A DNA stretch of 36,067 nt from a virus (taxonomy: Duplodnaviria; Heunggongvirae; Uroviricota; Caudoviricetes): IMG/VR virus record IMGVR_UViG_2563366915_000004; one strand, 5' to 3'. A program made the translations under genes and the position numbers. The notes under the pieces are model-generated. The model saw only the letters and a list, made by a program, of their open reading frames with translations, did not search any database and was not told where the DNA came from. Below, in pieces: positions 721 through 36,067 of the stretch. Within the stretch, counting starts at the first letter, position 1; each line of letters begins with the position of its first letter.

Positions 721-725
721 GGGAT

Positions 726-9964: not shown

Positions 9965-9977
9965 CCTGAACCAGGAA

Positions 9978-11486: not shown

Positions 11487-11698
11487 CAGAACCTCGCCAG
11501 CCGGTACCCGGGATGCCCCCGTCGTCGTGTAATCAGAGCCGCAAGGCGGCGCTCCCACTCCTGCCGTCCCTGCCGGATCTCAGATAAGTTTTCCATGGTC
11601 ATCTGCTGACCATTAAAGGTGACGGATTTTCCGTCCAGCACCGCCATTTCAGCTTCCGTATAACGCTGAATCATGGCTTCGATATCATTCTGGTTCAT
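11486..11698 (-). CDS. head-tail connector protein (gpW-like)
   Basis: About 70 aa, MNQNDIEAMIQRYTEAEMAVLDGKSVTFNGQQMT...RRRGHPGYRLARF, a gpW-like size and C-terminus; GGAGG RBS; overlaps the terminase stop (ATGA). Confidence 0.7.
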   Translation of the reverse strand: MNQNDIEAMIQRYTEAEMAVLDGKSVTFNGQQMTMENLSEIRQGRQEWERRLAALITRRRGHPGYRLARF

Positions 11699-13797
11699 AA
11701 CCATCCTCCGGAAGTCAGCCAGGGGTTAACATCGTCAGTTACTGTTTTCTTCCGTTTTTGTTTTTTAACAGGCGTGGATACCGGTTCCGGTGTGGGTGAC
11801 GGTTCGGTACTGTCCGGGACACACTCCAGCCAGGTTTCCCGGCTCGCCCACTCCGGTGCATCCGGCCAGCGGATCTTTTCGTATCCATGCAGAATGACCA
11901 GAGCCTCGGCATACACCATCAGGTCAAAAGCTTCGTTGGCACCGCGACCCGGCTTACTCCATTTCCCGTCACTGCTCCGCTCTTCATACGTCAGTTCGTC
12001 GTAAAACCAGCTCCCCAGCCAGTCAGGGAAATGCACATAGCCGGGACCTGGCGAGTCACGCCATAACGCGTTATTCACCCGGTCTTTCAGGGCATCCGTC
12101 TGAAGAAGCCAGAGCGGCACATCACCTGCGGCCTGCGCCCGGCGGCCCGTTCGTCCGGTGTTATCAGGGAATGTACGGCTGATCAGTTTTGCGCGCCGGA
12201 TGCTGTCACCCTTAAACAGGTAAATACGTTTACCAAGGCCATCACGACGGCAACGACGCCAGAATTTATAGGCATTATCAGTGACCCCGTCTTCACCGCC
12301 GGAGTCCACCGCCATTGCCATCAGTCGCATTTGTTGAGAAGGATCGGAGGCCAGCGGCCAGCTTTTATGAAAAACATCCGTCAGCAGGACATCCCAGTCT
12401 TCCGGATAGCTGGCCGGATCAATTCGCTGGCTCTCCCCGTCGCTGTCACCGCGCAATGACTGCGTGATGTTGTAACGATCAATAATCCAGCGTTCGCCAC
12501 GGCTGCCATAGCCCGTTACCTGAACCACAAAACGGCGATGACGTCCCGCCTGCACATCCACTGTCGCCACAAGGAAATTAACGCCATCCGGCACACTGCG
12601 GGAAGGAACTGGCTCTGCCCGCTGCTCAAGCAATTCACTTTTTCGTTGCTCCATGCTGGCGCGGGGAAGATAAGGTAATCCCCAGTCGGTATTGATAACC
12701 GTCTTGAGTGTCTCTTCACTTCCGGTTGTCTCGTATTCCTGTTCTGCAGTAAGCAGTTTGTAAACGAGTTGCGAGAGTGTCTGATAAGCAGCTGCCGGAC
12801 CCTCCATCCAGAATGACGCAATACGTGAACGCCGGGGATCACCATAACGACTGCCATCTGCATTGATGGATTCACCATCCCGTAACCAGACCCCACGTCC
12901 GTTCAGCTCGCGTTTTTGTTCAGGCAAAATCCGTCCTGAACAGGAAGGACACTGAATATAAGCCGCCTCACTTGCCAGCACAGGATCGGCAATATCACGG
13001 AAACCAGCAACCACATCGCCGCAGGGCTGAAAATACTCACCACAGTGTGGACAGGGCCAGTACCAGCGACGGCGATCGCCACGGTTATAGAGCGACAGGA
13101 TCCCCGTGGTTGGTGGAGCCTCATGCGGTGAAGTCCGTCGCCATTTCACATCCTTCACATCCCTGCCGGGGGAACTCTCCACCAGCGTCATACCACTGGA
13201 CATAAATGTGGTGGTACGTTTTGAGGCAAGAGAGAAGGCATCCCCCTCACCATCAATATCTTCCGGAAAACGGTCATAATCCGTCAGCGCCACGCATTTA
13301 TAATCTGATGAAGACATGATATTGACTGACGGCCAGCCGATTTTCAGGTAGTTGCCAGCAAGGAATGTTCTGTCATAAACGTTGTTGTCATTTTTGTTCG
13401 GACTCAGGCGACTGACCACTTCCGGGCTGACGCGAAACGTTCTGGCGAGTCGTTTTTTGGAGTGTTCGCGGGCTTTTTCCTCCGTCATCTGAATGATCAG
13501 CATATCAGCAGGATCGCAAATCACGTTGTAAATCACCCAGCCGTCAATCAGGCCGATAGTCTTGCCGGTTCGTGCCGGGCCAACAAATATCACTGCGTCG
13601 TATTCACGCGAGGCCAGGCAGTTCATAGGCTCAATAACATACGGTGCCACCAGCGGATCCCACGGGACTGAGTTCCCTGCCCCCATAGGCACCCGCATAT
13701 ACTGAGCAACGGCATCAGCAACCCGCATTCGTCTCGGTGCGCGAAGGATATAACCTGAATCGGTTCGTGCTGCCTTTGCGGTTTCCTGATTCAGCAT
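11695..13797 (-). CDS. terminase large subunit (lambda gpA-like)
   Basis: 700-aa ORF with Walker A-like VGPARTGKT, an acidic ATPase region and a C-terminal nuclease-like region; lies between the small terminase and W/portal. Confidence 0.9.
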   Translation of the reverse strand: MLNQETAKAARTDSGYILRAPRRMRVADAVAQYMRVPMGAGNSVPWDPLVAPYVIEPMNCLASREYDAVIFVGPARTGKTIGLIDGWVIYNVICDPADMLIIQMTEEKAREHSKKRLARTFRVSPEVVSRLSPNKNDNNVYDRTFLAGNYLKIGWPSVNIMSSSDYKCVALTDYDRFPEDIDGEGDAFSLASKRTTTFMSSGMTLVESSPGRDVKDVKWRRTSPHEAPPTTGILSLYNRGDRRRWYWPCPHCGEYFQPCGDVVAGFRDIADPVLASEAAYIQCPSCSGRILPEQKRELNGRGVWLRDGESINADGSRYGDPRRSRIASFWMEGPAAAYQTLSQLVYKLLTAEQEYETTGSEETLKTVINTDWGLPYLPRASMEQRKSELLEQRAEPVPSRSVPDGVNFLVATVDVQAGRHRRFVVQVTGYGSRGERWIIDRYNITQSLRGDSDGESQRIDPASYPEDWDVLLTDVFHKSWPLASDPSQQMRLMAMAVDSGGEDGVTDNAYKFWRRCRRDGLGKRIYLFKGDSIRRAKLISRTFPDNTGRTGRRAQAAGDVPLWLLQTDALKDRVNNALWRDSPGPGYVHFPDWLGSWFYDELTYEERSSDGKWSKPGRGANEAFDLMVYAEALVILHGYEKIRWPDAPEWASRETWLECVPDSTEPSPTPEPVSTPVKKQKRKKTVTDDVNPWLTSGGWL

Positions 13798-14291
13798 TAC
13801 TCCTCCTGCTGTAATTCCTCCTCATCATCCGCACCTGCTTCAGTCACCCGCAGGGCTATCTGATCGCGCAGATCATCAATAATGGACTGAACACGGCTCA
13901 CAGCGGCAGGCTGCAGACCGCAGTCACGTTCAAGAATATCCGGTAATGTCTCCAGCACCTGCACGACCGCTTTTGCCCAGATGGCAAACTCCCGTCTGAC
14001 ATCACTGGCCGGAATGAGTTGTGCCGTTTCCTGTTCGAACTTAAGACGCTCACGTTCAGACTGATACCAGGCTTTGCGCTCATGCGCGTCCATTTCGCCT
14101 TCTGCAACCGGCGGTGGTAATGCCAGAAATGCCGACACAATATCAACCACCCGATAAAGCTTGAGGTTGCTTTCATGCCCCCCTGCAACGGGTAGATTTT
14201 GCAGCCTTGCCGCAGCAGTCTGGCGATGTACACCTGACAATGCCGCCAGTTGACTGATATTCAGCGTCAGATTTTTTAACTCTCGATCCAT
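13797..14291 (-). CDS. terminase small subunit (Nu1 position, N-terminal HTH)
   Basis: 164-aa ORF with N-terminal helix-turn-helix LNISQLAALSGVHRQTAAARLQ and an acidic C-terminus; stop overlaps the terminase large subunit start; GGAG RBS. Confidence 0.7.
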   Translation of the reverse strand: MDRELKNLTLNISQLAALSGVHRQTAAARLQNLPVAGGHESNLKLYRVVDIVSAFLALPPPVAEGEMDAHERKAWYQSERERLKFEQETAQLIPASDVRREFAIWAKAVVQVLETLPDILERDCGLQPAAVSRVQSIIDDLRDQIALRVTEAGADDEEELQQEE

Positions 14292-14460
14292 ACCCGCTCC
14301 AGAATGTTTTAAACATGCATCTTGCGAACAACTTTAGGCAAACGGTGTTAGTGATGAACAAAAAACAATCAGAATCGACACCATAAAAATAAATCCACTG
14401 TAATATCAATCAATTACAGTAGTGGTGATGACGAATAAAATTTCAAAAACTAGCCTTTTT

Positions 14461-16563: not shown

Positions 16564-16769
16564 TTCATTTTCACTTTTTTAAATCCAACGACAGACGGCT
16601 GGCATTTAAGTATTGTGAAATATTATCAAATGTAATCATCATTGATTTACAAAAGATACATTTTGCCCCGAAAGGATTCATGTCAGAAACATCAAAAGAT
16701 GATGTTCTATACTGGGAACCATGACAACACGGGCATCTAAAGTGAATATGGTTTGTAATATTGTCTACC

Positions 16770-16982
16770 TCAAAGCGCCACTACATGAACAGCGGCAGGA
16801 CCTTTAGGTCCGTTCTCAATACCAAATTCAACTTCCTGATTCTCAGTTAATGTTTTGAAATCGTTGCTCTGAATTGCTGAGAAATGGACAAACACATCTT
16901 TGCTGCCATCTTTCGGCGTGATGAAACCAAAACCTTTTTCAGGGTTAAACCATTTCACTAAACCAGTCATTTTGTTAGACAT
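16770..16982 (-). CDS. cspI: cold shock protein (CspI-like)
   Basis: 70-aa [73 protein letters not shown] with RNP1/RNP2 CSD motifs (KGFGFI, VFVHF). Confidence 0.9.
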
Positions 16983-17345
16983 AATTATTACCTTTTGAAG
17001 AAATTAGCCCTTGGGCAGAATGGTCCGAAAAAAAATATCAGAGAGAAAAACCAACAAGGAAATCTCAAGAGGTACAAATAATAAAATTATAACAATGACT
17101 GCTTCAGATAAATTTGTAACAAACCAGAACACCATTAACGCATGATTAACCACCCATAGCAAGGATTACTTTTGTAAAGAAAAACACAGCAATGAAAGAA
17201 TAGCTTTATTTATTAATAATAACGTGTCATTCTGATTAAGACCTTTTATCTTACCCTTAAGATTTCAGGAATTTTGGCTCATGGAAGAGTCCTTTTTATT
17301 TAAATTTTACATTCCGCGATGTAAATGTTCCGATTTAATATTACC

Positions 17346-19376: not shown

Positions 19377-19654
19377 ATTGTGGTGCTTTTTGTGGGAGTC
19401 ATCCACTTACGCACTTTGTTTTGCCATGCCAGCAGTTAGCTTCTGCTGTAAAACTATTCATGCAGCAAACCTGCACTTCACCACAATGGTTAGCATACTT
19501 TTCCTGATTAAGATTTTGCCAAATATGCTAGCCATTGTTTCATGTATTGGACCTCCTTACTTTTTATTAAAGAGATCCAATATTCACTACTCTGTCCGTA
19601 TCTCTACTCAGGCATCAGCCTTCTTCGTTATCGTATACAGACGAGCGATGAATT

Positions 19655-19870
19655 TTAATCAGTAATGATGACATTTGCTGCTGCAGGACCTTTAGCACCA
19701 CTCTCTATAGAGAAGGTAACCTTTTGACCTTCAAATAAGGTTCGATAATTATCATTCTGAATCGCAGAAAAATGCACAAACACATCTTTACTACCATCAA
19801 CAGGAGAAATAAAGCCGAAACCTTTATCAGCGTTAAACCATTTTACTAAACCAGTCATTTTATTTGACAT
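19655..19870 (-). CDS. cspB: cold shock protein (CspB-like)
   Basis: 71-aa [70 protein letters not shown]..., with CSD RNP motifs. Confidence 0.9.
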
Positions 19871-20170
19871 TCTACATTCCTTAACTTGAGCCTTTCGGCA
19901 TAAATGGTTTGCATAACAGAAACGACTTCGTACTTAATTGGAGAGACTCAAAGAAGGAATAAGTGAATAACACCTGAAATGAGAACTGCTTTAGTAAACT
20001 ACTTCGTATATCGTCTGTTCTTCAAACCGACGCAATCATTAACGCATAGTTGAACATATGAAGCAATGTTTATTTTAGACATCCAGCCATCTTCAACCCC
20101 ATCAAAAAACTATAGCTTTCTTCAGGAACGTGTGTATAGTGCGCCAAGTTATCAGTATTAAGGAATTTTT

Positions 20171-22966: not shown

Positions 22967-23218
22967 TTATTCTTCTGCAAAAGCAGAAAAGCCAGCTTTT
23001 ATTCCGATCTCTTTCAATGCCTGTAATGAAGTGACAAACTCACCTTCGCGCAAGATAAATCCGTCCGTGACCCGAGCATCCACAAAATTAATTAACGCAG
23101 CCCCATTCTTTCGCAAACACATAATGCGGTAATGACTAACAAGATTTCCATTTTCAACGCACACAGCATAGAGGCCATCTTCACAAAAAATTTTACGCAG
23201 TTCTTCGATGTTCATCAT
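22967..23218 (-). CDS. rem: Rem-like small protein
   Basis: 83-aa ORF MMNIEELRKIFCEDGLYAVCVENGNLVSHYRIMCLRKNGAALINFVDARVTDGFILREGEFVTSLQALKEIGIKAGFSAFAEE; position next to hok as in Qin. Confidence 0.7.
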   Translation of the reverse strand: MMNIEELRKIFCEDGLYAVCVENGNLVSHYRIMCLRKNGAALINFVDARVTDGFILREGEFVTSLQALKEIGIKAGFSAFAEE

Positions 23219-23434: not shown

Positions 23435-23590
23435 TTACTCCTCAGGTTCGTAAGCTGTGAAGACAGCGACCTCCGTCTGGCCGGTTCGGATTCGTACCTC
23501 GCAGAGGTCTTTCCTCGTTACCAGTGCCGTCACTATGACGGTTAAACAGATGACGATCAGGGCGATTAACATCGCCTTTTGCTGCTTCAT
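23435..23590 (-). CDS. hokD: Hok/Gef-family type I toxin
   Basis: 51-aa ORF MKQQKAMLIALIVICLTVIVTALVTRKDLCEVRIRTGQTEVAVFTAYEPEE: single transmembrane helix plus conserved Cys and periplasmic tail; AAGGAG RBS inside the overlapping mok frame. Confidence 0.9.
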   Translation of the reverse strand: MKQQKAMLIALIVICLTVIVTALVTRKDLCEVRIRTGQTEVAVFTAYEPEE

Positions 23591-23647
23591 AGCCTGCTTC
23601 TCCTTGCCTTTCGGCTCGTAAGAGGCTAACCTACATGTGTCTAGCAT
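23435..23647 (-). CDS. mok (modulation of killing) reading frame overlapping hok
   Basis: ORF MLDTCRLASYEPKGKEKQA... begins upstream and runs in the hok frame region, as in hok/sok loci where mok translation is needed for hok translation. Confidence 0.5.
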   Translation of the reverse strand: MLDTCRLASYEPKGKEKQAMKQQKAMLIALIVICLTVIVTALVTRKDLCEVRIRTGQTEVAVFTAYEPEE

Positions 23648-23720
23648 GAAATTGGCCTCAGATTAATGTTAAGCGTCTTGCAGGACGCGTAATGTTAACT
23701 GGGGCTTTTCTCTATCTGCC
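23640..23720 (+). ncRNA. candidate Sok-type antisense RNA region (boundaries not determined)
   Basis: Inferred from hok/mok architecture: an antisense RNA complementary to the mok translation initiation region is expected here; possible -35/-10 TTGCCT-17-TAACCT near 23603-23631 on plus. No direct evidence of the transcript. Confidence 0.3.
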
Positions 23721-24264
23721 TTTGGTGTTCATGCCCGAGGCAGATAGCCTCAAGCACCCGCAGCCATTCTACTTAACTACCGTTACCTCGCCAATATGAA
23801 ATCAGTCAGAAAGGCGATCCATAAGAACAATAGCAAGACAATAAATCGCCATTACAGCCGTAATAGCCAGCGCACATTTGAGAACCAGCACCACAACCTC
23901 CTGTATTGGACGTAGACCAGTCCTGATGAATATGAGGCTGTCTCGTCAGTGATTCAATACAACTATTGGGTATAGTTTCTCTGATTTTTTCTGTGGAAAT
24001 GGGGCACAACCACTAGTCACCACCAGCACTTCTTTTAATACGCAAAGTCCGACACAAGCTAACCTTCTAGTCCGCTTTGAGCGAAAAACAGCCATAATTT
24101 AGTGCCACGTATATAATGATAGAGCTATTCAAGCTAGCAATTCACATGTAAAAATTCAGAGGGTAGAAGCACATAGTTATAAATGTTGGCTCCATCGACA
24201 AATTGCGGTCTCAAGTACATTTATTAATGTTGCCCCCGCATTAACAAATCATCAAGGTGACGAC

Positions 24265-26052
24265 ATGGACGATATTAATATCAGCCTCGACGAACTTAAC
24301 ACTATTGATTTATCCCCCTTAATCCAGAGTAAGCTGCCAGTTACCTGCTTTGATATCACAAAGTATCTTTCTAGCCTAGGTGATGGAAGAGCGGAGATAA
24401 GACTGCTAACCCATATTTGCGGTTTTCACTTTCGTCCCGAAAATCCACAGGTACCATTTGGTCCGTGCTTTCAAAGCAGCCAAGGTAGATCTGCAATTCC
24501 GGATGACATTAACGGGTTGTCGCTGGAGGTACTTTCTCAATTTTGCCCGACGATAGAGCTACCCGAACTTCAAGCTCGTATTGCTGATACACTTTGGGTT
24601 CGTAAAATTGGTGGAATCCGTTTTCCTTTGCTGGCAGTCCGTGCTTATTATGCGTCCAGTATAGCTATTATGACATCGCAAGGGACGTGGGTTAGTGCTT
24701 TAGAACGCCTAGAGCGTGCGCTTAGGCTGTGTTGTTTTTTTCGAAAGAATACTGATTTCAGGGATGAATTTGATCAGCTTTCGGCACATCTACTAGCAGA
24801 GTATGAACGTACCAGAGAACAAGGCGATTCACCTTATCCGCTGCGACTCCTGCAACTCGATATCGACTGTAAAGTGAGTGAGCCATCTTTTATTGCCCAG
24901 GAACTCCTGTTTCTGACAAAAAACTATCTGGCTCAAAAATTATTTTCATTTGCCGTCGATGCCTGTAAAACCGCAATCACGATTGCGAATAGGTGCTGTG
25001 ACAGAGATACACAGTTTGAATTCTGGCGGCTTCTTGCCGATACACATCTGGAAGAGTCAAAATTCCAAGATGGCGGTATGATTTCGGCAGCCTGCATGCA
25101 GAATGCTATTGAAGCACTGGCTAATATTCCAGGAACCCGAATAGAACGTCTTGCGCTGTATGAAGAAATGCGTGATTACCAAATCGAATCCCGTCACCAG
25201 ATGTCTATCCTTCAGTCTCCCCCTCAAGATATTAGTGAGATTGTCCATCAAGCCAAGAGTCGGGTAGTCGGAAGAGATATGTTTGATATGGTTTTCAGAC
25301 TTGCGATGCTGGTCTGTCGGCCAACCAGCATTGAGAGACTTAAGGCTCAAGCAATAGAACAAAAGGCCAACAGCATAGCTTGGATGTTTGGATCAACACA
25401 TATTGATCATGAGGGAATGACACTTGCTCGCATACCCGCAGGATTGGGGATTGATGATGCAAATGGGGCAGTTATTTGGCCCATAATGATGACGAGAATG
25501 CGTATCGACCATGAGTTGGCAGTAGCTGGGCAAATTATTCCTGCTACAGATGAGATCACAATGAAATATCCAATCTCGGAGGCGTTTTTTCGCGATATGT
25601 TCATCAATCATCCCTTCATCCCGTTTGGGCATGAAGAGTTTTTCATCAAGGGTATGGTTTGCGGTTTCAATGGAGATTTTATGACGGCATGCCACGTGTT
25701 GATTCCCCAGATCGAAAATAGTCTGAGATATGTGGCTAAAATTAAAGGTGAGGAACCATCGCAGCTTCACGGGGACGGTTCGCAAGAGCGAAATGGACTC
25801 AAGGGATTACTAGATAATCCACTGATTATTGAAGCTTTCGGCGTAGACATAATTGGCAATCTTCAGGCCTTACTGGTAGATAAAATCTATGGTGATTTAC
25901 GAAATCAACTAGCTCACGGATATGTGCCTGCCGGTTACTACAATCAACCTCCCTGCATTTTTGCATGGTGGCTTGTATTGCACATTCTAATGAACCCTAC
26001 GGCGAGATACTGGCAAGCCACTTATGGCCAAGAGAGTGAGGCTCAGACTTAA
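24265..26052 (+). CDS. 595-aa protein with C-terminal HEPN-type Rx4HxY motif (candidate RNase-type defence/abortive-infection effector); N-terminal roughly 500 aa of unknown family
   Basis: Long ORF with AAGGTGA RBS 5 nt upstream of the ATG; opposite orientation to all flanking prophage genes; motif GDLRNQLAHGY (R546-x4-H551-x-Y553, nt about 25891-25923) about 45 aa from the C-terminus. Confidence 0.75.
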   Translation: MDDINISLDELNTIDLSPLIQSKLPVTCFDITKYLSSLGDGRAEIRLLTHICGFHFRPENPQVPFGPCFQSSQGRSAIPDDINGLSLEVLSQFCPTIELPELQARIADTLWVRKIGGIRFPLLAVRAYYASSIAIMTSQGTWVSALERLERALRLCCFFRKNTDFRDEFDQLSAHLLAEYERTREQGDSPYPLRLLQLDIDCKVSEPSFIAQELLFLTKNYLAQKLFSFAVDACKTAITIANRCCDRDTQFEFWRLLADTHLEESKFQDGGMISAACMQNAIEALANIPGTRIERLALYEEMRDYQIESRHQMSILQSPPQDISEIVHQAKSRVVGRDMFDMVFRLAMLVCRPTSIERLKAQAIEQKANSIAWMFGSTHIDHEGMTLARIPAGLGIDDANGAVIWPIMMTRMRIDHELAVAGQIIPATDEITMKYPISEAFFRDMFINHPFIPFGHEEFFIKGMVCGFNGDFMTACHVLIPQIENSLRYVAKIKGEEPSQLHGDGSQERNGLKGLLDNPLIIEAFGVDIIGNLQALLVDKIYGDLRNQLAHGYVPAGYYNQPPCIFAWWLVLHILMNPTARYWQATYGQESEAQT

Positions 26053-26712: not shown

Positions 26713-27678
26713 TTATCCTCTGAAACCAGGCGGAATTTCTGTATCCGGTTCAGAAATATGATTAACACAACGCTGTACAGGTGAACGCCCCAGGCGGATG
26801 ACCAGTTCGTCCCATTTTTCGCGGAGCTTTGACGGGCTCATGATGTTTTTTACCCAGAATGGATCCCGCTGTACCCGACCAAACATTTCACAAATTTGTC
26901 TGTGGCTTCTGCCATCCAGCATCCGCATTGTGCGCACATCATTGGCCCAGACAGTCCAGTTAGGCTCTTTTGGTCGCATGATCTCGCCATCATCACTGGC
27001 GGCCTGTTCGTAGAGACCCACGATCCGCCCCCATATCCACTGCGCACACGCCAGATCCTCCTGGCTACCCCACTGGCGTTTTTTCGCACTAAACACAACT
27101 GCGCCAGGGTGCCGGATTAAAAAATCCTGTTCAGCCGTCTGCGGGTCCGGTTGCGAAGCTTCCGGACGAAAAGTGTTTTTATTCTCTGTAGTAATCTCTG
27201 TTGTATTCTCTGTAGGATCATCGGGCCATTTTGACCCGATGACATTGGGTCGTTTTGAACCAATGGAGCGTTTCATTTTGACCTCTTCCATCGTGTCATT
27301 TTGACCTGATGGAGCGGCGCATTTTGAACCGATGGATTCGCTCAATTTGCCATCATCTAAAAGCTCGCTTCCATAGTTAATCGTGTAGAAATTGGTCATA
27401 TCGCGCTTTGATTTATTGAGCTTTTCACAACGCAAAAGCCCCAGCGTTTTCAGACTTGCAAACGCGCGCTTTAACGTTGACTCTGACCAGAATGGGAACT
27501 GTTCCAGCCATTGTTCCGTTGTGTTGTAAATCCAGCGAACACCATCACATTCCATGCCGGAATTGGTATCTCTCAACCAGTAATGCAACTGCTGCAACAC
27601 AATGGCTTCATTTAAGCCAATCTTCATCGCAAGCTGTGTGTTTATAACCAGTGGGCGTTCAGCAAAAAGAAGGCTCAT
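26713..27678 (-). CDS. replication initiator (lambda O-like / replisome organiser) containing the origin iterons
   Basis: Track ORF 26713..27732; start moved to internal Met MSLLFAERPLVINTQLAMKIGLNEAIVLQQLHYWL...; the central region encodes a repeated IGSK motif coinciding with DNA iterons; position downstream of the cro-like and cII-position genes. Confidence 0.75.
   Translation of the reverse strand: MSLLFAERPLVINTQLAMKIGLNEAIVLQQLHYWLRDTNSGMECDGVRWIYNTTEQWLEQFPFWSESTLKRAFASLKTLGLLRCEKLNKSKRDMTNFYTINYGSELLDDGKLSESIGSKCAAPSGQNDTMEEVKMKRSIGSKRPNVIGSKWPDDPTENTTEITTENKNTFRPEASQPDPQTAEQDFLIRHPGAVVFSAKKRQWGSQEDLACAQWIWGRIVGLYEQAASDDGEIMRPKEPNWTVWANDVRTMRMLDGRSHRQICEMFGRVQRDPFWVKNIMSPSKLREKWDELVIRLGRSPVQRCVNHISEPDTEIPPGFRG
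27226..27351. repeat. origin-like iterons: 5-6 direct repeats with about 23-bp periodicity (consensus cATTTTGAcC...GATGG) inside the initiator gene
   Basis: Repeats near 27228, 27252, 27275, 27298, 27321 and a degenerate copy near 27344, followed by an AT-richer stretch; analogous to lambda ori within O. Confidence 0.65.
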
Positions 27679-28180
27679 AATTCCATCCAGCTTTTTGTTG
27701 GTATTGCTGTCGATACGCAAGTTTGAAAGCAATTGCTTTTTCTATAAGTTCGTCAGTTTCACGATCCACTACGGCAGGATCAGCAAAAAGCAGTCCGGAC
27801 TCCACCACATCGCCATATTCTTTGTTTAACCCGGCGATCATGTACGTGATGCTTTTTCCGTCACTAATTTCACGATACAACCTGAAATCATTAATCCGGA
27901 TAGCCTCCATAATTGCAGGCACTAGCGCCGTGAACTTTTCACGCTTATCCCTGGTGTCGATAGCCTTCCAGCGTTCGAATATCTTCACTCGATTAACGCC
28001 AAGCGCTCGCTGATCAACCGCGCCACCTTCATCTGTGACACGCTGAACATCGATGTTCGGGCGCTCTTTCAAAGCCCAGAATGCTTCAGTGATTAATATC
28101 GTCGCCTGCTCCTGTGTCATTCCTGGTCGACATATCCAGGCATCCAGAGCCTCACGAGCCTGTTCAGGAGTGATTTTCAT
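27659..28180 (-). CDS. YdaT-like protein (cII-position regulatory protein)
   Basis: 173-aa ORF between the cro-like gene and the initiator; segment KREKFTALVPAIMEAI resembles the YdaT family as recalled; overlaps neighbours by a few codons. Confidence 0.5.
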   Translation of the reverse strand: MKITPEQAREALDAWICRPGMTQEQATILITEAFWALKERPNIDVQRVTDEGGAVDQRALGVNRVKIFERWKAIDTRDKREKFTALVPAIMEAIRINDFRLYREISDGKSITYMIAGLNKEYGDVVESGLLFADPAVVDRETDELIEKAIAFKLAYRQQYQQKAGWNYEPSFC

Positions 28181-28391
28181 TGTTCAACCGCCCCGCCCGC
28201 TTCGTCTTACGATATTCGTCATAAACCTTGGGATCATACAGAAGCTCGCCGCCAGATGCCTCCTGTAGACGCATCGCGCGACCTTCAGGAACCAGCTCTT
28301 GCCATTGAGAAACAGCAGATGGGTCAACGCCAGCAGCTTTCGCTACTTTGGCTTTCGTACCGTAAAAATTAATTACGTCTGATTTAAACAT
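28164..28391 (-). CDS. dicC: Cro-like repressor DicC homolog
   Basis: Track ORF 28164..28418; start at internal Met MFKSDVINFYGTKAKVAKAAGVDPSAVSQWQ...PEGRAMRLQEASGGELLYDPKVYDEYRKTKRAGRLNNENHS (HTH); GGAGGTG RBS; divergent from dicA. Confidence 0.8.
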   Translation of the reverse strand: MFKSDVINFYGTKAKVAKAAGVDPSAVSQWQELVPEGRAMRLQEASGGELLYDPKVYDEYRKTKRAGRLNNENHS

Positions 28392-28404: not shown

Positions 28405-28418
28405 TTGAGTTTTCTCAA
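28405..28418. promoter_or_regulatory. palindromic operator TTGAGTTTTCTCAA in the dicA/dicC divergent promoter region
   Basis: Perfect 14-bp palindrome between the divergent repressor genes; a near-identical copy lies upstream of ydfA. Confidence 0.5.
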
Positions 28419-28468: not shown

Positions 28469-28876
28469 ATGAACGAGAAAACTTTAGGTCAACGCATTAG
28501 AGAAAGACGTAAGCAGGTAGGTTTAAGTCAAAACGGTTTAAGCAAAGCTGCTGGCGTATCTGGCTCATCAATTTCATTATGGGAAAGTGACCATACAGCC
28601 CCGCGCGGGCAAAATTTGCATCGCCTCGCCGAGGTATTGCAATGTTCACCAACCTGGATACTGTTTGGCGACGAGGACAAAACACCAGCTCCCCCTGTTT
28701 CACTCGATAGTGCCTTAGACTTATCGGAAGATGAGTTAGAGATGCTGCGTTTGTATCGCGCACTTCCTAAATCAGAGCAACAAGCACAACTCAGCGAACT
28801 CCGCGCCCGCGTTGAGAATTTTAATCGCCTGTTCACCGAGCTATTAGAGGCTCGCAAACGCAACAAGCATCAATAA
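28469..28876 (+). CDS. dicA: cI-like repressor DicA homolog (XRE-family HTH)
   Basis: Track ORF 28418..28876; start at internal Met MNEKTLGQRIRERRKQVGLSQNGLSKAAGVSGSSISLWESDHTAPRGQNLHRLAEVLQCSPTWILFGDED...; no obvious SD, possibly a short-leader transcript. Confidence 0.85.
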   Translation: MNEKTLGQRIRERRKQVGLSQNGLSKAAGVSGSSISLWESDHTAPRGQNLHRLAEVLQCSPTWILFGDEDKTPAPPVSLDSALDLSEDELEMLRLYRALPKSEQQAQLSELRARVENFNRLFTELLEARKRNKHQ

Positions 28877-28940: not shown

Positions 28941-28992
28941 TTGAGTTTTCTCATCAAAAAGCCTTGACGAAAAATAATGAGAAAACTAAATT
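28941..28992 (+). promoter_or_regulatory. candidate dicB-operon promoter with second operator copy
   Basis: TTGAGTTTTCTCA (28941-28953) followed by TTGACG - 17 bp - TAAATT (about 28964-28992) upstream of ydfA. Confidence 0.45.
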
Positions 28993-29068
28993 ACCTCCAT
29001 CAACACACCGCACGGTGTTCTCAGCAAACAGTTCCGCTACCCCGGCGTTAAGGGGAAATGAGGTCAGC

Positions 29069-29224
29069 ATGGATACTATCGATCTTGGCAACAACGAATC
29101 TCTGGTGTACGGCGTGTTTCCAAACCAGGACGGCACGTTCACCGCAATGACGTATACCAAAAGCAAAACGTTTAAAACCGAAAATGGTGCCCGTCGCTGG
29201 CTGGAAAGAAACTCAGGTGAGTGA
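29069..29224 (+). CDS. ydfA: YdfA-like small protein (DUF1391)
   Basis: Track ORF 28913..29224; start at internal ATG with GAGG RBS: MDTIDLGNNESLVYGVFPNQDGTFTAMTYTKSKTFKTENGARRWLERNSGE (51 aa). Confidence 0.8.
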   Translation: MDTIDLGNNESLVYGVFPNQDGTFTAMTYTKSKTFKTENGARRWLERNSGE

Positions 29225-29225
29225 T

Positions 29226-29801
29226 ATGGATTTCGACACAATCATGGAAAAGGCTTACGAAGAATACTTCGAAGGCCTTGCCGAAGGCGAAGAAGCTCTC
29301 AGCTTCAGTGAGTTTAAACAGGCACTCAGAATAAGAATGCGCTCTCACAATGACGCGGAGCACAAATATGAGAAGCAAAATCAGACCGCAGAAAATTTTG
29401 TTCTGGAACCCGGAGAAACGCTTTTCAAAATTCCCGTTACGTGCCCCATTTGCGGTTTTACATCAGAAGAACTTGACGACTCCTGTAACAATCAGGAAAC
29501 AACCAAGTATGTCGAAGATGATACCGAGTGCGCACGAAGAACGATTATATCCACGAGTCCAAACTCCAGGACCAATAAATCTCACTTTGAGAGGGTGATT
29601 AATCCACTCCCCCAAACCAATAAAAAAGATGCCGGAGGACAAAAAAACCAATGGAACAACGGGATATCTGTCAAAAAAAGACGTTCCATTAAAGACAAAC
29701 AACGCAGCGCCAACAACTGTAAGCGCTTTATACCAGTAATCAATTTTCATGTTCTTAAGCGGATTTATTGGTGGTTGCGACATTGCTTAATGAATCCTTA
29801 A
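29226..29801 (+). CDS. YdfB-like N-terminus extended into a longer ORF (possible ydfB/ydfC region); true extent uncertain
   Basis: Starts MDFDTIMEKAYEEYFEGLAEGEEALSFSEFKQAL... right after the ydfA stop; contains CPICGF...C motif; the distal third is low-complexity and may be non-coding. An alternative-frame ORF exists at 29350..29598. Confidence 0.35.
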   Translation: MDFDTIMEKAYEEYFEGLAEGEEALSFSEFKQALRIRMRSHNDAEHKYEKQNQTAENFVLEPGETLFKIPVTCPICGFTSEELDDSCNNQETTKYVEDDTECARRTIISTSPNSRTNKSHFERVINPLPQTNKKDAGGQKNQWNNGISVKKRRSIKDKQRSANNCKRFIPVINFHVLKRIYWWLRHCLMNP

Positions 29802-30060
29802 AACTGTGGTGATTTTAAGGATACCACCTCGCCTGACGTGGTTAAAAGCAGGCACACAACACGAAAGCGCACGGCGAAGTTCGTCTCACTGTACGGTGTC
29901 GTCAAATTTAATTCGACCGTGCGCTTCCGGTTGTGGCAACCCGCGAAATGGCGCGGCGGTAAGTATGGCGGGGTTATTCCTTCCCCGTTGAGGACACCGA
30001 GTTGTCAGGTTGACCATACGCTTAAGCGACAACCCCGCTGCAACGCCCTCTGTTATCAAT

Positions 30061-30113
30061 TTTCTGGTGACGTTTGGCGGTATCAGTTTTACTCCGTGAC
30101 TGCTCTGCCGCCG
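30061..30113 (+). ncRNA. dicF: DicF small RNA (Hfq-dependent sRNA from the dicB operon)
   Basis: Sequence TTTCTGGTGACGTTTGGCGGTATCAGTTTTACTCCGTGACTGCTCTGCCGCC followed by GTTTTT matches the 53-nt DicF sequence as remembered; lies between the ydfB/C region and dicB. Confidence 0.75.
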
Positions 30114-30287
30114 TTTTTAAAGTGAATTTTGTGATGCGGTGAATGCGGCTAAGCGCACGCGGAACAGTTAAAACCAAAAACAGTGTTATGGGTGGATTCT
30201 CTGTATCCGGCGTTAATTGTTAACTGGTTAACGTCACCTGGAGGCACCAGGCACTGCATCACAAAATTCATTGTTGAGGACGCGATA

Positions 30288-30476
30288 ATGAAAACGTTAT
30301 TACCAAACGTTAATACGTCTGAAGGTTGTTTTGAAATTGGTGTCACTATCAGTAACCCTGTATTTACTGAAGATGCCATTAACAAGAGAAAACAAGAACG
30401 GGAGCTATTAAATAAAATATGCATTGTTTCAATGCTGGCTCGTTTACGTCTGATGCCAAAAGGATGTGCACAATGA
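30288..30476 (+). CDS. dicB: cell division inhibitor DicB
   Basis: Track ORF 30183..30476; start at internal ATG with GAGGA RBS: MKTLLPNVNTSEGCFEIGVTISNPVFTEDAINKRKQERELLNKICIVSMLARLRLMPKGCAQ (62 aa). Confidence 0.85.
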   Translation: MKTLLPNVNTSEGCFEIGVTISNPVFTEDAINKRKQERELLNKICIVSMLARLRLMPKGCAQ

Positions 30477-30664
30477 ATTCAGCATTTGCGCTTGTTCTGA
30501 CAGTTTTTCTTGTTTCCGGAGAGCCAGTTGATATTGCAGTCAGTGTTCACAGGACAATGCAGGAGTGTATGACTGCAGCAACCGAACAGAAAATTCCCGG
30601 TAACTGTTACCCGGTCGATAAAGTTATTCACCAGTATAATATCGAAATCCCGGCAGGTCTTTAA
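30473..30664 (+). CDS. ydfD: YdfD-like small lysis protein
   Basis: Track ORF 30419..30664; start at internal Met (ATGA overlap with the dicB stop): MNSAFALVLTVFLVSGEPVDIAVSVHRTMQECMTAATEQKIPGNCYPVDKVIHQYNIEIPAGL (63 aa), hydrophobic N-terminus. Confidence 0.8.
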   Translation: MNSAFALVLTVFLVSGEPVDIAVSVHRTMQECMTAATEQKIPGNCYPVDKVIHQYNIEIPAGL

Positions 30665-30757
30665 AACAGTTCCGTAATAAATATCCGGTTTCATTCTTAT
30701 ATGCCAGCAATGGCAGGGATTTGTTCATCCTTAAATCTGTCATGAGGTTAAAACAAA

Positions 30758-33229
30758 ATGAGTAAAGTCTTTATTTGCGCCGCTATTCCTGACGAACTGG
30801 CAACAAGGGAAGAAGGCGCTGTGGCTGTAGCCACAGCCATTGAAGCTGGCGACGAACGCCGTGCTCGAGCAAAATTTCACTGGCAATTCCTGGAACATTA
30901 TCCGGCTGCTCAGGACTGCGCTTATAAATTTATTGTCTGCGAGGATAAACCTGGCATACCCCGCCCTGCCCTCGATTCATGGGATGCTGAATATATGCAG
31001 GAAAACCGCTGGGATGAGGAGTCTGCTTCTTTTGTCCCGGTTGAGACTGAATCCGATCCGATGAACGTCACTTTTGACAAGCTGGCCCCTGAAGTACAGA
31101 ACGCTGTCATGGTTAAGTTCGACACATGTGAAAACATCACCGTTGATATGGTTATTAGCGCACAGGAATTGTTGCAGGAAGACATGGCAACATTCGACGG
31201 ACATATCGTTGAAGCGTTGATGAAAATGCCAGAAGTTAACGCCATGTATCCGGAGCTTAAGTTGCACGCCATTGGGTGGGTTAAGCATAAATGTATTCCT
31301 GGTGCTAAATGGCCCGAAATTCAGGCAGAGATGCGCATCTGGAAAAAACGTCGCGAAGGTGAACGCAAGGAAACCGGAAAATACACGTCTGTTGTTGATC
31401 TCGCCCGCGCCAGAGCCAATCAACAGTACACTGAAAATTCAACAGGAAAAATCAGCCCGGTCATTGCTGCCATTCATCGCGAATACAAGCAGACATGGAA
31501 AACACTGGATGACGAACTGGCCTACGCTCTCTGGCCTGGTGATGTGGATGCCGGAAACATTGACGGCAGCATCCATCGCTGGGCAAAAAATGAAGTTATC
31601 GATAACGACCGCGAAGACTGGAAGCGTATCTCGGCATCAATGCGCAAACAGCCTGATGCCCTTCGCTACGACCGCCAAACTATTTTTGGCCTTGTCCGTG
31701 AACGTCCGATCGACATTCACAAAGATCCCGTAGCACTGAACAAATATATCTGCGAATACCTGACGACAAAGGGCGTGTTTGAGAATGAAGAAACAGACCT
31801 GGGCACTGTTGATGTTCTCCAGTCATCAGAAACACAAACTGATGCAGTGGAAACTGAGGTATCTGATATCCCAAAAAATGAAACCGCGCCGGAAGCTGAA
31901 CCATCTGTAGAGCGTGAGGGGCCGTTCTATTTCCTCTTCGCAGATAAGGACGGAGAAAAATACGGTCGCGCAAACAAACTTTCTGGTCTGGATAAGGCAC
32001 TGGCTGCTGGCGCCACTGAAATCACAAAAGAAGAATATTTTGCCCGAAAAAATGGCACATACACGGGCTTACCGCAAAATGTAGATACCGCTGAAGATTC
32101 AGAACAACCAGAGCCGATAAAAGTTACCGCTGACGAAGTAAACAAAATTATGCAGGCAGCCAATATCATCCAGCCTGACGCCGATAAGTTGCTTGCTGCA
32201 TCACGTGGTGAATTTGTTGAAGGGATTAGTGACCCGAATGATCCGAAATGGGTTAAGGGGATCCAGACCCGCGATTCTGTGAACCAGAACCAGCATGAAT
32301 CGGAACGGAACTACCAAAAAGCGGAACAAAACAGCCCAAATGCGTTACAAAACGAGCCAGAAACGAAACAGCCTGAATCAGTGGCGCAACAGGAAGTGGA
32401 AAAAGTCTGCACCGCCTGCGGTCAGACCGGCGGCGGCAACTGCCCTGATTGTGGCGCGGTAATGGGCGACGCAACATACCAGGAAACATTCGATGAAGAG
32501 TATCAGGTTGAAGTTCAGGAAGATGATCCGGAGAAAATGGAAGGCGCTGAACATCCACACAAGGAGAACACTGGCGGCAATCAGCATCACGATAGCGATA
32601 ATGAAACTGGCGAGACGGCAGATCACTCAATTAAGGTGAACGGTCATCACGAAATCACATCCACCAGCAGGACGTGTGACCATCTAATGATCGACCTTGA
32701 AACCATGGGAAAAAATCCTGATGCCCCGATCATCTCAATAGGTGCAATATTTTTCGATCCGCAAACCGGAGATATGGGACCGGAATTTATTAAGACTATC
32801 GATCTGGAAACTGCTGGCGGAGTCATTGATCGGGACACCATTAAATGGTGGTTTAAGCAATCACGCGAAGCGCAATCTGCCATTATGACCGATGAAATCC
32901 CGTTAGATGATGCACTGTTACAATTGCGGGAATTTATCGACGAAAACTCCGGTGAATTTTTTGTTCAGGTCTGGGGAAATGGAGCCAACTTCGACAACAC
33001 GATTTTGCGCCGTTCATACGAACGGCAGGGGATCCCCTGCCCGTGGCGTTACTACAACGATCGCGATGTACGCACAATCGTTGAGCTGGGGAAAGCCATA
33101 GACTTCGATGCCAGAACGGCTATTCAATTCGAAGGTGAGCGCCATAATGCACTTGATGACGCCCGTTACCAGGCAAAATACGTTTCAGTTATCTGGCAAA
33201 AACTGATCCCGAGTCAGGCTGATTCTTAA
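30758..33229 (+). CDS. ydfE: full-length YdfE-like protein (823 aa) with zinc-ribbon and C-terminal DEDDh 3'-5' exonuclease domain
   Basis: N-terminus MSKVFICAAIPDELATREEGAVAVATAIEAGDERRARAKFHWQFLEHYP as in YdfE; acidic middle region; CTACGQTGGGNCPDCG zinc ribbon; C-terminal Exo motifs LMIDLETMG, WGNGANFDN, HNALDDARY. Confidence 0.8.
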   Translation: MSKVFICAAIPDELATREEGAVAVATAIEAGDERRARAKFHWQFLEHYPAAQDCAYKFIVCEDKPGIPRPALDSWDAEYMQENRWDEESASFVPVETESDPMNVTFDKLAPEVQNAVMVKFDTCENITVDMVISAQELLQEDMATFDGHIVEALMKMPEVNAMYPELKLHAIGWVKHKCIPGAKWPEIQAEMRIWKKRREGERKETGKYTSVVDLARARANQQYTENSTGKISPVIAAIHREYKQTWKTLDDELAYALWPGDVDAGNIDGSIHRWAKNEVIDNDREDWKRISASMRKQPDALRYDRQTIFGLVRERPIDIHKDPVALNKYICEYLTTKGVFENEETDLGTVDVLQSSETQTDAVETEVSDIPKNETAPEAEPSVEREGPFYFLFADKDGEKYGRANKLSGLDKALAAGATEITKEEYFARKNGTYTGLPQNVDTAEDSEQPEPIKVTADEVNKIMQAANIIQPDADKLLAASRGEFVEGISDPNDPKWVKGIQTRDSVNQNQHESERNYQKAEQNSPNALQNEPETKQPESVAQQEVEKVCTACGQTGGGNCPDCGAVMGDATYQETFDEEYQVEVQEDDPEKMEGAEHPHKENTGGNQHHDSDNETGETADHSIKVNGHHEITSTSRTCDHLMIDLETMGKNPDAPIISIGAIFFDPQTGDMGPEFIKTIDLETAGGVIDRDTIKWWFKQSREAQSAIMTDEIPLDDALLQLREFIDENSGEFFVQVWGNGANFDNTILRRSYERQGIPCPWRYYNDRDVRTIVELGKAIDFDARTAIQFEGERHNALDDARYQAKYVSVIWQKLIPSQADS

Positions 33230-33281
33230 TGTTCAACTGTCGCCGGTTGTGACTGGTATTCTGCAACCGGCGCTCGTCTAA

Positions 33282-34476
<1,195 letters not shown>

Positions 34477-34500
34477 CTAATATAAGAGATAAAGAAATCG

Positions 34501-34752
34501 ATGAGCGAAGTAATCATGATTGTCTCTCCCGGCAAATGGGTATCCGAAGAGCAGTTAATTGCGCTGAAAGGAATAAAAAAAGGTACGTTAAAAAAGGCCC
34601 GGGAAAAATCGTTTATGGAAGGAAGGGAATATAAGCATGTCGCTCATGACGGTATGCCATGGGATAACAGTCCATGCTTTTACAACCTGGAAGAAATTGA
34701 TCGCTGGATTGAGCGCCAGGCATCAGCAAGACCAAGACGTCATCTTACTTGA
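34501..34752 (+). CDS. excisionase-like protein (DUF1233-type Xis)
   Basis: 83-aa ORF MSEVIMIVSPGKWVSEEQLIALKGIKKGTLKKAREKSFMEGREYKHVAHDGMPWDNSPCFYNLEEIDRWIERQ... immediately upstream of the integrase, same strand. Confidence 0.6.
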   Translation: MSEVIMIVSPGKWVSEEQLIALKGIKKGTLKKAREKSFMEGREYKHVAHDGMPWDNSPCFYNLEEIDRWIERQASARPRRHLT

Positions 34753-34771
34753 CTAAAAGCCACACTAACTA

Positions 34772-36067
34772 ATGAGAGAAGTTGAAATGAAATATCCGAC
34801 AGGCGTGGAAAACCATGGAGGGAAATTACGTATCTGGTTTGTTTATAAAGGCGTAAGAGTCAGGGAAAACCTGGGGGTTCCTGACACAGCAAAAAACAGG
34901 CGCGTTGCAGGTGAGCTACGCGCCTCTGTTTGTTACGCAATAAAAACTGGTGTTTTCGACTATGCAAAACAGTTTCCCTCCTCACGCAATCTGGAAAAAT
35001 TTGGTGAGGCCCGACAAGATTTAACCATAAAAGAACTGGCTGAAAAATTTCTGGCACTGAAAGAAACTGAAGTCGCAAAAACATCACTCAACACATACCG
35101 TGCCGTCATCAAAAATATCCTGAGCATAATCGGTGAAAAAAATCTTGCCTCATCGATTAATAAAGAAAAATTACTGGAGGTTCGTAAAGAGCTACTGACT
35201 GGATACCAGATCCCCAAAAGTAACTATATTGTTACACAACCAGGGAGATCGGCTGTAACTGTAAATAATTACATGACAAATCTTAACGCCGTGTTCCAGT
35301 TTGGTGTTGATAACGGTTACCTGGTAGATAACCCGTTTAAGGGGATCTCGCCATTAAAGGAATCAAGAACCATTCCGGATCCTCTTTCGCGGGAGGAATT
35401 CATCCGTCTTATCGATGCGTGCAGAAATCAGCAAGCCAAAAATTTATGGTGTGTTTCTGTTTATACTGGCGTTCGCCCTGGTGAGCTGTGTGCACTTGGA
35501 TGGGAGGACATAGATCTGAAAAATGGAACAATGATGATCAGGAGAAATTTAGCAAAAGACCGTTTCACGGTACCAAAAACACAGGCGGGAACCAATCGGG
35601 TCATTCATCTTATTAAGCCAGCAATCGACGCTCTCCGGAGTCAGATGACATTAACGAGACTGAGCAAAGAGCATATCATTGATGTTCACCTCAGAGAGTA
35701 TGGCAGAACAGAAAAACAAAAATGCACCTTTGTTTTTCAACCTGAAGTGTCAGCGAGAGTAAAAAATTATGGTGACCATTTTACCGTTGACTCAATAAGG
35801 CAGATGTGGGACGCAGCGATAAAACGTGCCGGACTCCGCCATCGAAAATCATATCAGTCGAGACATACTTATGCCTGCTGGTCGCTGACAGCTGGTGCTA
35901 ACCCGGCATTTATAGCAAACCAGATGGGCCATGCAGATGCGCAAATGGTATTTCAGGTATACGGAAAATGGATGTCTGAAAACAATAATGCACAGGTAGC
36001 TTTGTTAAATACACAGTTAAGCGAGTTTGCCCCAACCATGCCCCATAACGAAGCAATGAAAAATTAA
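34772..36067 (+). CDS. tyrosine-type phage integrase
   Basis: 431-aa ORF ending at the window edge; C-terminal catalytic region with R...HxxR...Y pattern (RHTYACWSLTAGANPAFIANQMGHADAQMVFQVYGKW); start may be the internal ATG at 34787 (MKYPTGVEN...). Confidence 0.85.
   Translation: MREVEMKYPTGVENHGGKLRIWFVYKGVRVRENLGVPDTAKNRRVAGELRASVCYAIKTGVFDYAKQFPSSRNLEKFGEARQDLTIKELAEKFLALKETEVAKTSLNTYRAVIKNILSIIGEKNLASSINKEKLLEVRKELLTGYQIPKSNYIVTQPGRSAVTVNNYMTNLNAVFQFGVDNGYLVDNPFKGISPLKESRTIPDPLSREEFIRLIDACRNQQAKNLWCVSVYTGVRPGELCALGWEDIDLKNGTMMIRRNLAKDRFTVPKTQAGTNRVIHLIKPAIDALRSQMTLTRLSKEHIIDVHLREYGRTEKQKCTFVFQPEVSARVKNYGDHFTVDSIRQMWDAAIKRAGLRHRKSYQSRHTYACWSLTAGANPAFIANQMGHADAQMVFQVYGKWMSENNNAQVALLNTQLSEFAPTMPHNEAMKN

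Follow-up and report, generated by a model that had tools for sequence, protein, structure and literature searches.

DicF within the early-left operon of a nearly complete lambdoid prophage of the Qin/mEp460 type

What would a DicF gene do in a prophage that still carries most of a phage's genes? An earlier note on a 36,067-nt stretch of prophage DNA (hereafter "the window", to which all positions refer) placed DicF at 30061-30113, between the ydfB/C-like region and dicB, and expected it to be expressed there as part of normal early transcription, in contrast to the degraded Qin prophage of Escherichia coli K-12. The locus thus raises three linked questions: whether the sequence is an intact DicF, in what kind of operon and prophage it lies, and how the RNA would be made and would act.

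Identity and fold of the DicF RNA

An Rfam cmscan covering the whole window returned four families above their gathering thresholds. Among them was DicF (RF00039), matched on the + strand at 30062-30113 along the full model (1-52 of 52) with 72.5 bits (gathering threshold 48 bits, E 2.7e-14) and 0 non-canonical pairs, and no second DicF match was found in the window at the gathering threshold. When the annotated K-12 gene is aligned to the + strand at 30061-30113, 52 of the 53 bases are identical, and the pairing regions, in which seed divergence was looked for, are unchanged. The two sequences compared are:

30061-30113, + strand: DicF sRNA, 53 nt, defined by the RF00039 match, the b1574 alignment and the fold, with a U-run at 30114-30118
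NC_000913 1649382-1649434: the K-12 reference dicF (b1574), 53 nt

The sole mismatch is at nt 53 (C in K-12, G at 30113 in the window), nt 1-52 being identical. This substitution lies directly 3' of the terminator stem, outside the stem and outside both mapped pairing regions, i.e., the 5' end for xylR and the 3' part for ftsZ and pykA (PMC5069750). In a set of 100 distinct DicF loci, for which an exactly matching DicF core was the sole criterion and the flanks were left unconstrained, 81 have C at nt 53, 17 have G and two have A; the G of the window is a common allele.

The predicted fold comprises 15 unpaired nt at the 5' end, a bulged stem-loop and then GUUUUUA, which bears out the 3' stem and U-tract described from the sequence at first sight. 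Minimum-free-energy and centroid structures are the same for the window and K-12 (-16.6 vs. -15.9 kcal/mol). A simple terminator scan left this hairpin unflagged, and since its stem is bulged and its loop is 9 nt long, the scan counts neither for nor against termination at this place. The predicted duplex with ftsZ covers ftsZ positions -28 to +26, with -38.9 kcal/mol for the window and -38.5 kcal/mol for the K-12 allele. As energies at least this good arose in 45 of 500 mononucleotide shuffles, this value is weakly significant, and the case for ftsZ targeting stands instead on identity to an RNA validated experimentally in K-12. Taken at the level of sequence and predicted fold, 30061-30113 is confirmed as a genuine, intact DicF gene.

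The early-left operon and its regulators

Gene order in this part of the window runs from a DicA-like repressor through promoter and operators, ydfA, a ydfB remnant that encloses a membrane-protein gene in reverse orientation, and a leader of ~150 nt to DicF, and from there through a trailer of ~175 nt to dicB, ydfD, exo, IS5, xis and int. The features up to the end of ydfD, preceded by the antirepressor homologue encoded further upstream, are:

22967-23218, - strand: rem, encoding a homologue of the antirepressor of Qin, with 81 of 83 residues shared with K-12 Rem
28164-28391, - strand: DicC/Cro-type regulator, 75 aa, 70% identical to K-12 DicC
28405-28417: third copy of TTGAGTTTTCTCA, between the cro-like and repressor genes (repeat search)
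28469-28876, + strand: DicA-type short repressor, 135 aa, 57% identical to K-12 DicA over 127 aa
28941-28953: putative operator TTGAGTTTTCTCA, upstream of the -35 element (repeat search)
28964-28992, + strand: pL-like promoter, TTGACG-17 nt-TAAATT (consensus scan, 9/12 match)
28977-28991: putative operator, an inverted copy of TTGAGTTTTCTCA overlapping the -10 element (repeat search)
29069-29224, + strand: ydfA, 51 aa, first gene of dicBF-type operons, 100% identical to K-12 YdfA
29226-29801, + strand: 191-aa ORF called as "hypothetical protein" (PGAP; phrog_35040), with a YdfB-like start
29463-29783, - strand: 106-aa gene with three hydrophobic segments (homologues, hydropathy, codon-position test)
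29913-30060, + strand: conserved non-coding leader, 99% identical to K-12
30114-30287, + strand: conserved non-coding trailer, i.e., the dicB 5' UTR, with a sub-threshold STnc100 match
30288-30476, + strand: dicB, cell-division inhibitor, 62 aa, 100% identical to K-12 DicB and annotated in the CFSAN061770 genome
30473-30664, + strand: ydfD, small lysis protein, 63 aa, 97% identical to K-12 YdfD
30702-30725, + strand: terminator-like hairpin with a T-rich tail after ydfD (consensus scan)

The repressor carries Pfam HTH_3 alone and, like DicA, has no S24 cleavage domain; it and the Cro-like gene are divergently arranged. Its likely target is the pL-like promoter ~1.06 kb upstream of DicF (K-12 has TTGACC-17-TAATCT at the equivalent position), from which we infer a transcription start near 29000, and between which and DicF the consensus scan found no terminator-like site on the + strand. 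Two copies of the 13-nt motif TTGAGTTTTCTCA bracket a putative operator region at 28941-28991, and the K-12 DicA operators at the equivalent positions differ from these copies in sequence, in keeping with another immunity type. From position 28998, just upstream of the start proposed here, the window is again homologous to K-12. On these comparisons, the immunity module was exchanged and the transcribed early-left region retained, which is classical lambdoid modularity. The dicBF transcripts of K-12 measure 1,146 and 1,608 nt (PMC10448788), sizes that likely fit a start at the homologous position, with the 1,608-nt class ending at the equivalent of the hairpin at 30702-30725.

In K-12, Rem derepresses the dicBF promoter (PMC10448788), and because repressor and operators of the window differ from DicA and its sites, control of this promoter by the Rem homologue is an assumption. 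No match to the LexA-box core CTGT-N8-ACAG occurs in the window, against a chance expectation of 0.47, and the sequence therefore gives no support for SOS control of rem or of other genes; the K-12 dicBF promoter is reported to be unresponsive to mitomycin C (PMC10448788).

The position of DicF "between the ydfB/C-like region and dicB", as first described, holds on the downstream side and in part upstream: dicB follows, and what precedes is ydfA with the initial 34 codons of ydfB, ydfC being absent. Where K-12 has ydfC and the 3' end of ydfB, the window has the reverse membrane-protein gene. The 191-aa ORF annotated on the + strand across this interval shows 85% identity to YdfB over residues 1-41, the clear likeness being that of its first 34 residues. 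For the 106-aa gene on the opposite strand, homologues along its whole length (40-58% identity) occur in Yersinia, Herminiimonas and Reinekea, and it adjoins the repressor, in opposite orientation, in each of five other lambdoid prophage loci. Between pairs of homologues, substitutions at codon positions 1/2/3 of the minus-strand frame number 38/22/55, 41/24/59 and 26/18/51, and amino-acid identity is 0.51-0.67 in this frame vs. 0.36-0.41 in the codon-aligned antisense frame. Codon-position pattern and frame identities together indicate that the minus-strand gene is the real one, and both argue against the 191-aa ORF as a real gene upstream of DicF. The rest of that ORF is probably a shadow frame of the opposite-strand gene, which is itself probably a lysogeny-expressed moron that replaced ydfC.

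Completeness of the prophage and its relatives

The description of a "largely complete prophage" was largely right about gene content and needs two corrections. On the structural and late side, the window encodes terminase subunits, portal, a protease/capsid fusion, head-tail, tail shaft and tape measure proteins. It further carries Q, holin/lysozyme/Rz, an O-like protein, the DicA/DicC-type pair, rem, exo, xis and int. Its replication genes are an O-like initiator (phrog_391, E 3e-92), a CII-like/YdaT gene and a Ren-like/DUF977 gene; no separate helicase loader was recognised among the window proteins, and the isolated phage HannyBb, to which 85% of the window aligns, has the same three genes. 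The left end of the window falls within tail genes K/I, so that terminase through minor tail protein L is present and J, lom, side tail fibre (stf), tfa and pin lie outside it, and an IS5 element stands between exo and xis:

30758-33229, + strand: exonuclease gene (exo), 823 aa, intact, with a Pfam Rv2179c-like 3'-5' exonuclease domain
33282-34476, - strand: IS5, 1195 bp, with a 338-aa transposase, between exo and xis
34501-34752, + strand: excisionase gene (xis), 100% identical to CFSAN061770
34787-36067, + strand: tyrosine integrase gene (int), 100% identical to CFSAN061770, its stop codon being the window end

Much of what the window cuts off can be seen in E. coli CFSAN061770. Its prophage is 99.98-99.99% identical to window 1-11032 and 9000-33281 (four substitutions, 0 gaps), continues at 100% identity to 34477-36067, and contains J, lom, stf, tfa and pin. 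It sits between a truncated ydfJ and rspB, i.e., at the K-12 Qin site, and has 0 PGAP pseudogene flags, Q, holin, DUF1327, lysozyme and Rz included. IS5 is missing from it, and the flanks there abut with a 4-bp overlap; in the window, the CTAA target duplication stands at 33278-33281 and 34477-34480. Among the complete-genome matches listed, none aligned across IS5 in a single piece, and the element is annotated as such in matching records. The early-left operon of the window is thus interrupted by a mobile element. Overall, gene content and alignments support the window as a full-length, near-complete Qin/mEp460-type lambdoid prophage.

The contrast with Qin is borne out as well. K-12 Qin lacks head, tail and replication genes, of which the window keeps terminase through tail shaft and the O-like initiator; its exo is the IS2-truncated pseudogene ydfE and its int a pseudogene, whereas both are intact in the window, as is xis. 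The insertion in the early-left arm accordingly differs, IS5 in the window vs. IS2 in Qin, and a DUF4209/DUF7380 gene stands where Qin has relBE, ydfV and flxA. Immunity differs too, in repressor (57% identity to DicA) and operators. What the two share is extensive: a DicF with 52 of 53 bases identical set in leader and trailer sequences 99% identical; ydfA as first gene, dicB and ydfD downstream, a DicA/DicC-type pair and rem; a dicF-dicB-ydfD-ydfE' block 98.2% identical to the window; an 8.3-kb colinear late/cold-shock block from ydfO to hokD, 98.7% identical; and an intQ remnant 99% identical to the int region of the window, matched by the location of the CFSAN061770 prophage at the same chromosomal site. 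K-12 YdfX corresponds to the first 93 residues of the 173-aa YdaT/CII-like protein of the window.

Any novelty implied for DicF in a full prophage does not stand. Large or functional lambdoid prophages are already known to carry it, from copies in EHEC, from the database annotation of phage Tritos and from mEp460_evo81 in 2023. Tritos (OV696610; prophage 3 of AIEC LF82) is an infectious lambdoid phage, for which virion production and plaque formation have been reported (PMC9928086), and its DicF is annotated as misc_RNA. Its gene order is cI, three small ORFs, DicF, dicB, ydfD, exo VIII, xis and int; its DicF stretch of 71 nt matches that of the window at 100%, G at nt 53 included, and identity is 98.5% across window 29844-33279. 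It differs from the window in its immunity and replication modules, in keeping ydfB/ydfC-type ORFs and in having no IS5. The mEp460-type phages, with mEp460_ev081 (LR597641; "mEp460_evo81" in PMC10448788), are 98.5% identical to the structural region 1-14316. The DicF of mEp460_ev081 is 98.6% identical over 71 nt, and the early regions show mosaicism, 76% of window 29000-31500 being covered. The presence of dicB, dicF, dicAC and rem in this functional phage was brought out in 2023 (PMC10448788); the original mEp460 record, JQ182728, is absent among the 22 phage records in which the 71-nt query found DicF. EHEC O157:H7 lambdoid prophages (CP-933/Sp) bring several DicF copies per genome, upstream of a dicB-type gene (PMC5069750, PMC10448788). 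In PPompW, the sole such prophage aligned, dicB is ~70% identical and the upstream genes differ. An earlier count of ~2,000 phage genomes without DicF or DicB (Balasubramanian et al., 2016; PMC5069750) is overtaken.

The 71-nt query locates DicF in 3947 out of 5426 complete E. coli genomes, with as many as seven places per genome. An exact copy of the 71 nt of the window is present in 890 E. coli records, as well as in the phages Tritos and HannyBb. IMG/VR adds at least 120 contigs with DicF, many of them 35-55 kb long. Of the 5426 genomes, 347 have 80% or more of a 25-kb segment of the window (8001-33000) in one place, many of them at 100% identity. The arrangement of DicF within a full prophage is common in sequenced E. 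coli, and ordinary. In a scan of species-representative genomes, the DicF core was found outside Escherichia/Shigella in none but three MAGs binned to unlikely taxa, and this confinement leaves no divergent homologues for structure testing. Aeromonas phage AP1, considered as a cross-genus case, was rejected, as its record contains, 1.2 kb apart, two unrelated fragments of the present E. coli prophage.

Expression, function and the conserved block around DicF

We consider it highly probable (roughly 0.88) that DicF lies here in an early-left, pL-type operon and is made and acts as follows. In the lysogen, the short DicA-type repressor would sit on the operators flanking and overlapping the promoter at 28964-28992. 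Relief could come from the Rem antirepressor, from a changeover to the Cro-like protein or from stress, urea and heat being the stresses reported for K-12. Derepression would give a polycistronic transcript from near 29000. Some of these transcripts would terminate at the hairpin and U-run of DicF, their 5' side being trimmed to the 53-nt RNA first by RNase III and next by RNase E, and those that read through would carry dicB and ydfD. In K-12, RNase III generates a species of ~190 nt and RNase E the 5' end of the 53-nt RNA, the 3' end coming from termination or from RNase III (PMC5069750, PMC10448788). The flanks relevant to this processing are 99% identical between the window and K-12. By analogy, the leader at 29913-30060 would form part of the ~190-nt precursor, whose 5' end, placed by length, would fall near 29924, and the RNase E site making the DicF 5' end would lie at the 3' edge of the leader. 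The 3' part of DicF would pair with the ftsZ ribosome-binding region (and with pykA) and its 5' part with xylR, and together with DicB the RNA would halt host division in early phage development, as lambda kil does. The kil gene of lambda, likewise early-left (pL operon) and repressor-controlled, prevents FtsZ-dependent division while the phage develops. The parallel is one of function, kil being a protein and DicF an antisense RNA acting on ftsZ translation, with no sequence relationship between them. In the unrelated phage Evi, which is outside the 100-locus set, the gene after DicF is annotated Kil.

Identity, fold, gene order, promoter- and operator-like sites and near-completeness come from the present analysis; processing, Hfq dependence, targets, repression by DicA and relief by Rem come from experiments in K-12, and their operation here is by extension. 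The layout of the locus nevertheless supports well the expectation that DicF would be expressed with early-left transcription upon derepression. The prophage itself, given IS5 and the tail-tip and fibre genes lying outside the window, may not be inducible to virions, in which case the "normal early transcription" first envisaged would amount to an abortive induction, as in K-12.

Such an outcome bears on a second reading, in which DicF is, as argued for Qin, a host-side regulator (in stationary phase, at low oxygen and, with DicB, in phage exclusion) kept by a fixed and non-productive prophage. IS5 does split exo from xis and int, a near-identical prophage occupies the same chromosomal site as Qin, the 8.3-kb late/cold-shock region is 98.7% identical between the two, the 347 genomes with at least 80% of the 25-kb stretch, many of them at 100% identity, would fit vertical inheritance, and a benefit to the host has been argued from K-12 (PMC5069750). 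However, the near-identical prophage shows no PGAP pseudogene flags, IS5 is intergenic and missing from CFSAN061770, none of the matches listed aligning across it in a single piece, and Tritos, HannyBb and mEp460_ev081, which carry the same module, are isolated or infectious phages. Host and phage roles are moreover not mutually exclusive. We regard an essentially host-side DicF as unlikely.

The immediate surroundings of DicF are conserved in an uneven manner. Among the 100 loci, the upstream sequence 29641-29840 has less than 50% identity to the window in 87, and dicB (30288-30476) falls below 70% or is replaced in 29. The leader reaches at least 95% identity in 94 of these loci, and the trailer does so in 85. 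A non-coding block of ~375 nt around DicF, at about 95-100% identity over the 100 loci, is therefore far better conserved than the genes on both sides. This pattern is pertinent to a third reading, according to which the DicF element has chiefly a cis function, that of an intrinsic terminator or attenuator (tL-type) limiting expression of dicB, ydfD, exo, xis and int, with the sRNA a by-product that gained targets later. A hairpin with a U-run in mid-operon, the K-12 transcript class ending at or near dicF next to a longer read-through class (PMC10448788), and leader and trailer sequences at least 95% identical while flanking genes are swapped, which suggests constraints beyond the pairing regions, would all suit it. 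On the other hand, control of ftsZ, xylR and pykA by base pairing in trans has been demonstrated experimentally (PMC5069750), and the single-stranded 5' part, dispensable for termination, equals the hairpin in conservation. Action in cis does not preclude action in trans, and a mainly cis-acting element seems to us rather improbable. A chance or degenerate DicF-like sequence without function has a negligible likelihood, being refuted by the alignment (E 2.7e-14, 52/53 identity) and by the intact flanks and operon.

Returning to DicF as an early-left phage function, a tentative extension, which we hold to be doubtful, is that the unit maintained in phages is the ~375-nt cassette 29913-30287 (148-nt leader, DicF, 174-nt trailer) and not DicF alone. 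Its conservation could reflect functional constraint (processing, attenuation or a second RNA) or a role in recombination. The cassette could serve as a processing and attenuation hub gating early-left read-through into the division-inhibitor and recombination genes, might yield a second RNA product, or could be a homology linker where lambdoid modules are exchanged. For a second RNA, the trailer region offers a lead: 30111-30320 matches Rfam STnc100 (RF02076), a prophage sRNA family recently tied to PasD, over the full model length with 34.5 bits (E 5.5e-6, local), below the gathering score of 47, and is thus no more than a pointer to that family. Covariation analysis (RNAalifold and column inspection of 87 distinct cassette rows) found the trailer and DicF hairpins invariant or nearly so, and hence speaks neither for nor against any structure. 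For the precursor, a fold of 29895-30185 sought for an RNase III duplex had an energy like that of shuffled sequences (z -1.03), and its minimum-energy structure does not keep the DicF hairpin.

Beyond a correct annotation of this textbook sRNA, the import of the locus is slight. The gain in annotation is real, if small, as the RefSeq record of CFSAN061770 has no dicF feature and calls upstream of its position the 191-aa ORF, which is probably spurious. For the biology of the family, the comparison presents K-12 Qin as a deletion derivative of a phage type that is still circulating.

Genes and RNAs of the window compared with K-12 Qin

The features below are spread over the window, and several of them are set beside K-12 Qin in the text that follows (Rfam scores in bits).

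Features of the window discussed here
16743-17128, -, cspA-type thermoregulator 5' UTR at cspI (Rfam, 112.8 bits)
19639-20031, -, cspA-type thermoregulator 5' UTR at cspB (Rfam, 158.8 bits)
23585-23759, -, sok antitoxin RNA of the hokD locus (Rfam, 116 bits)
24265-26052, +, 595-aa DUF7380/DUF4209 protein, in an orientation opposed to its neighbours
27659-28180, -, 173-aa YdaT/CII-like protein
29463-29783, -, 106-aa ORF with three hydrophobic segments, antisense to the early-left operon and overlapping the annotated + strand ORF 29226-29801
30111-30320, +, sub-threshold match to STnc100 (RF02076) over the full model length (Rfam), in the DicF-dicB spacer
33282-34476, IS5 with a 338-aa transposase on the - strand and a CTAA target duplication, in the exo-xis intergenic region

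The 106-aa ORF occupies the place at which K-12 Qin carries ydfC. Its product shares 40-58% identity with homologues in distant Proteobacteria. At each of five further lambdoid prophage loci (L007-L011), the homologous gene adjoins the repressor gene in opposite orientation. This gene is probably a moron expressed during lysogeny, and its product is perhaps of the exclusion type. On the opposite strand, the "191-aa hypothetical protein" annotated by PGAP and PHROG looks like the N-terminus of YdfB joined to a shadow frame. In each of the three independent homologues examined (window 29463-29783, L007:4001-4321 and L010:605-925), the antisense frame that is codon-aligned with the membrane-protein gene contains no stop in any of its 107 codons, a property expected in only ~7% of genes of this length by a rough estimate from codon usage. 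Such a frame may result either from codon bias or from an overlapping frame.

With hokD/sok on one side and the replication genes on the other, the DUF7380/DUF4209 gene takes the position held by relBE, ydfV and flxA in K-12 Qin; it is a moron and a possible candidate for a defence function. The cold-shock morons cspB and cspI are common to both prophages. The first 93 residues of the YdaT/CII-like protein have their counterpart in K-12 YdfX (96 aa), at 98% identity, and ydfX is thus a truncated remnant.

An STnc100-like spacer and DicF matches in records assigned to other taxa

The match of the DicF-dicB spacer to STnc100, a prophage sRNA family with members near stx2 and Fels-1 genes, reached 34.5 bits (local E-value 5.5e-6), below the gathering score of 47. 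The hairpin motifs GGUGAAU and CCUGGAGGCACCAGG are common to the spacer and to STnc100.

DicF was also matched in records assigned to other taxa. In the 254-kb record of Aeromonas phage AP1 (L016, MT713136), two pieces of this E. coli prophage, unrelated to each other, lie 1.2 kb apart near the record end: the DicF cassette at 2997-3243 (247 nt, 100% identical) and part of the tape-measure gene at 4417-4654 (238 nt, 99.6% identical). This arrangement is almost certainly an assembly chimera. Three genome contigs (L020, L021 and L022) with the DicF core had been assigned to bins of Veillonella parvula, of Collinsella sp. and of a soil "Proteobacteria bacterium" MAG; most likely they come from Escherichia prophages and were mis-binned.

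Insertion sequences and dicB

Among the best matches listed from a collection of 5,426 genomes, none spanned the window IS5 (33282-34476) in a single piece. One related prophage, in strain PEC411, carries an ISKpn26-type relative of IS5 within a stretch of equal total length. Two prophages otherwise 100% identical (NZ_CP030768.1 and NZ_AP027563.1) have an IS5 at a position that coordinate arithmetic places at ~30308 of the window, i.e., inside dicB, and in a published ST131 genome an IS3 element interrupts dicB of an mEp460-type prophage. Taken together, the IS5 insertions in these two prophages and the IS3 insertion in the ST131 genome suggest that insertional inactivation of the toxic gene dicB is recurrent.
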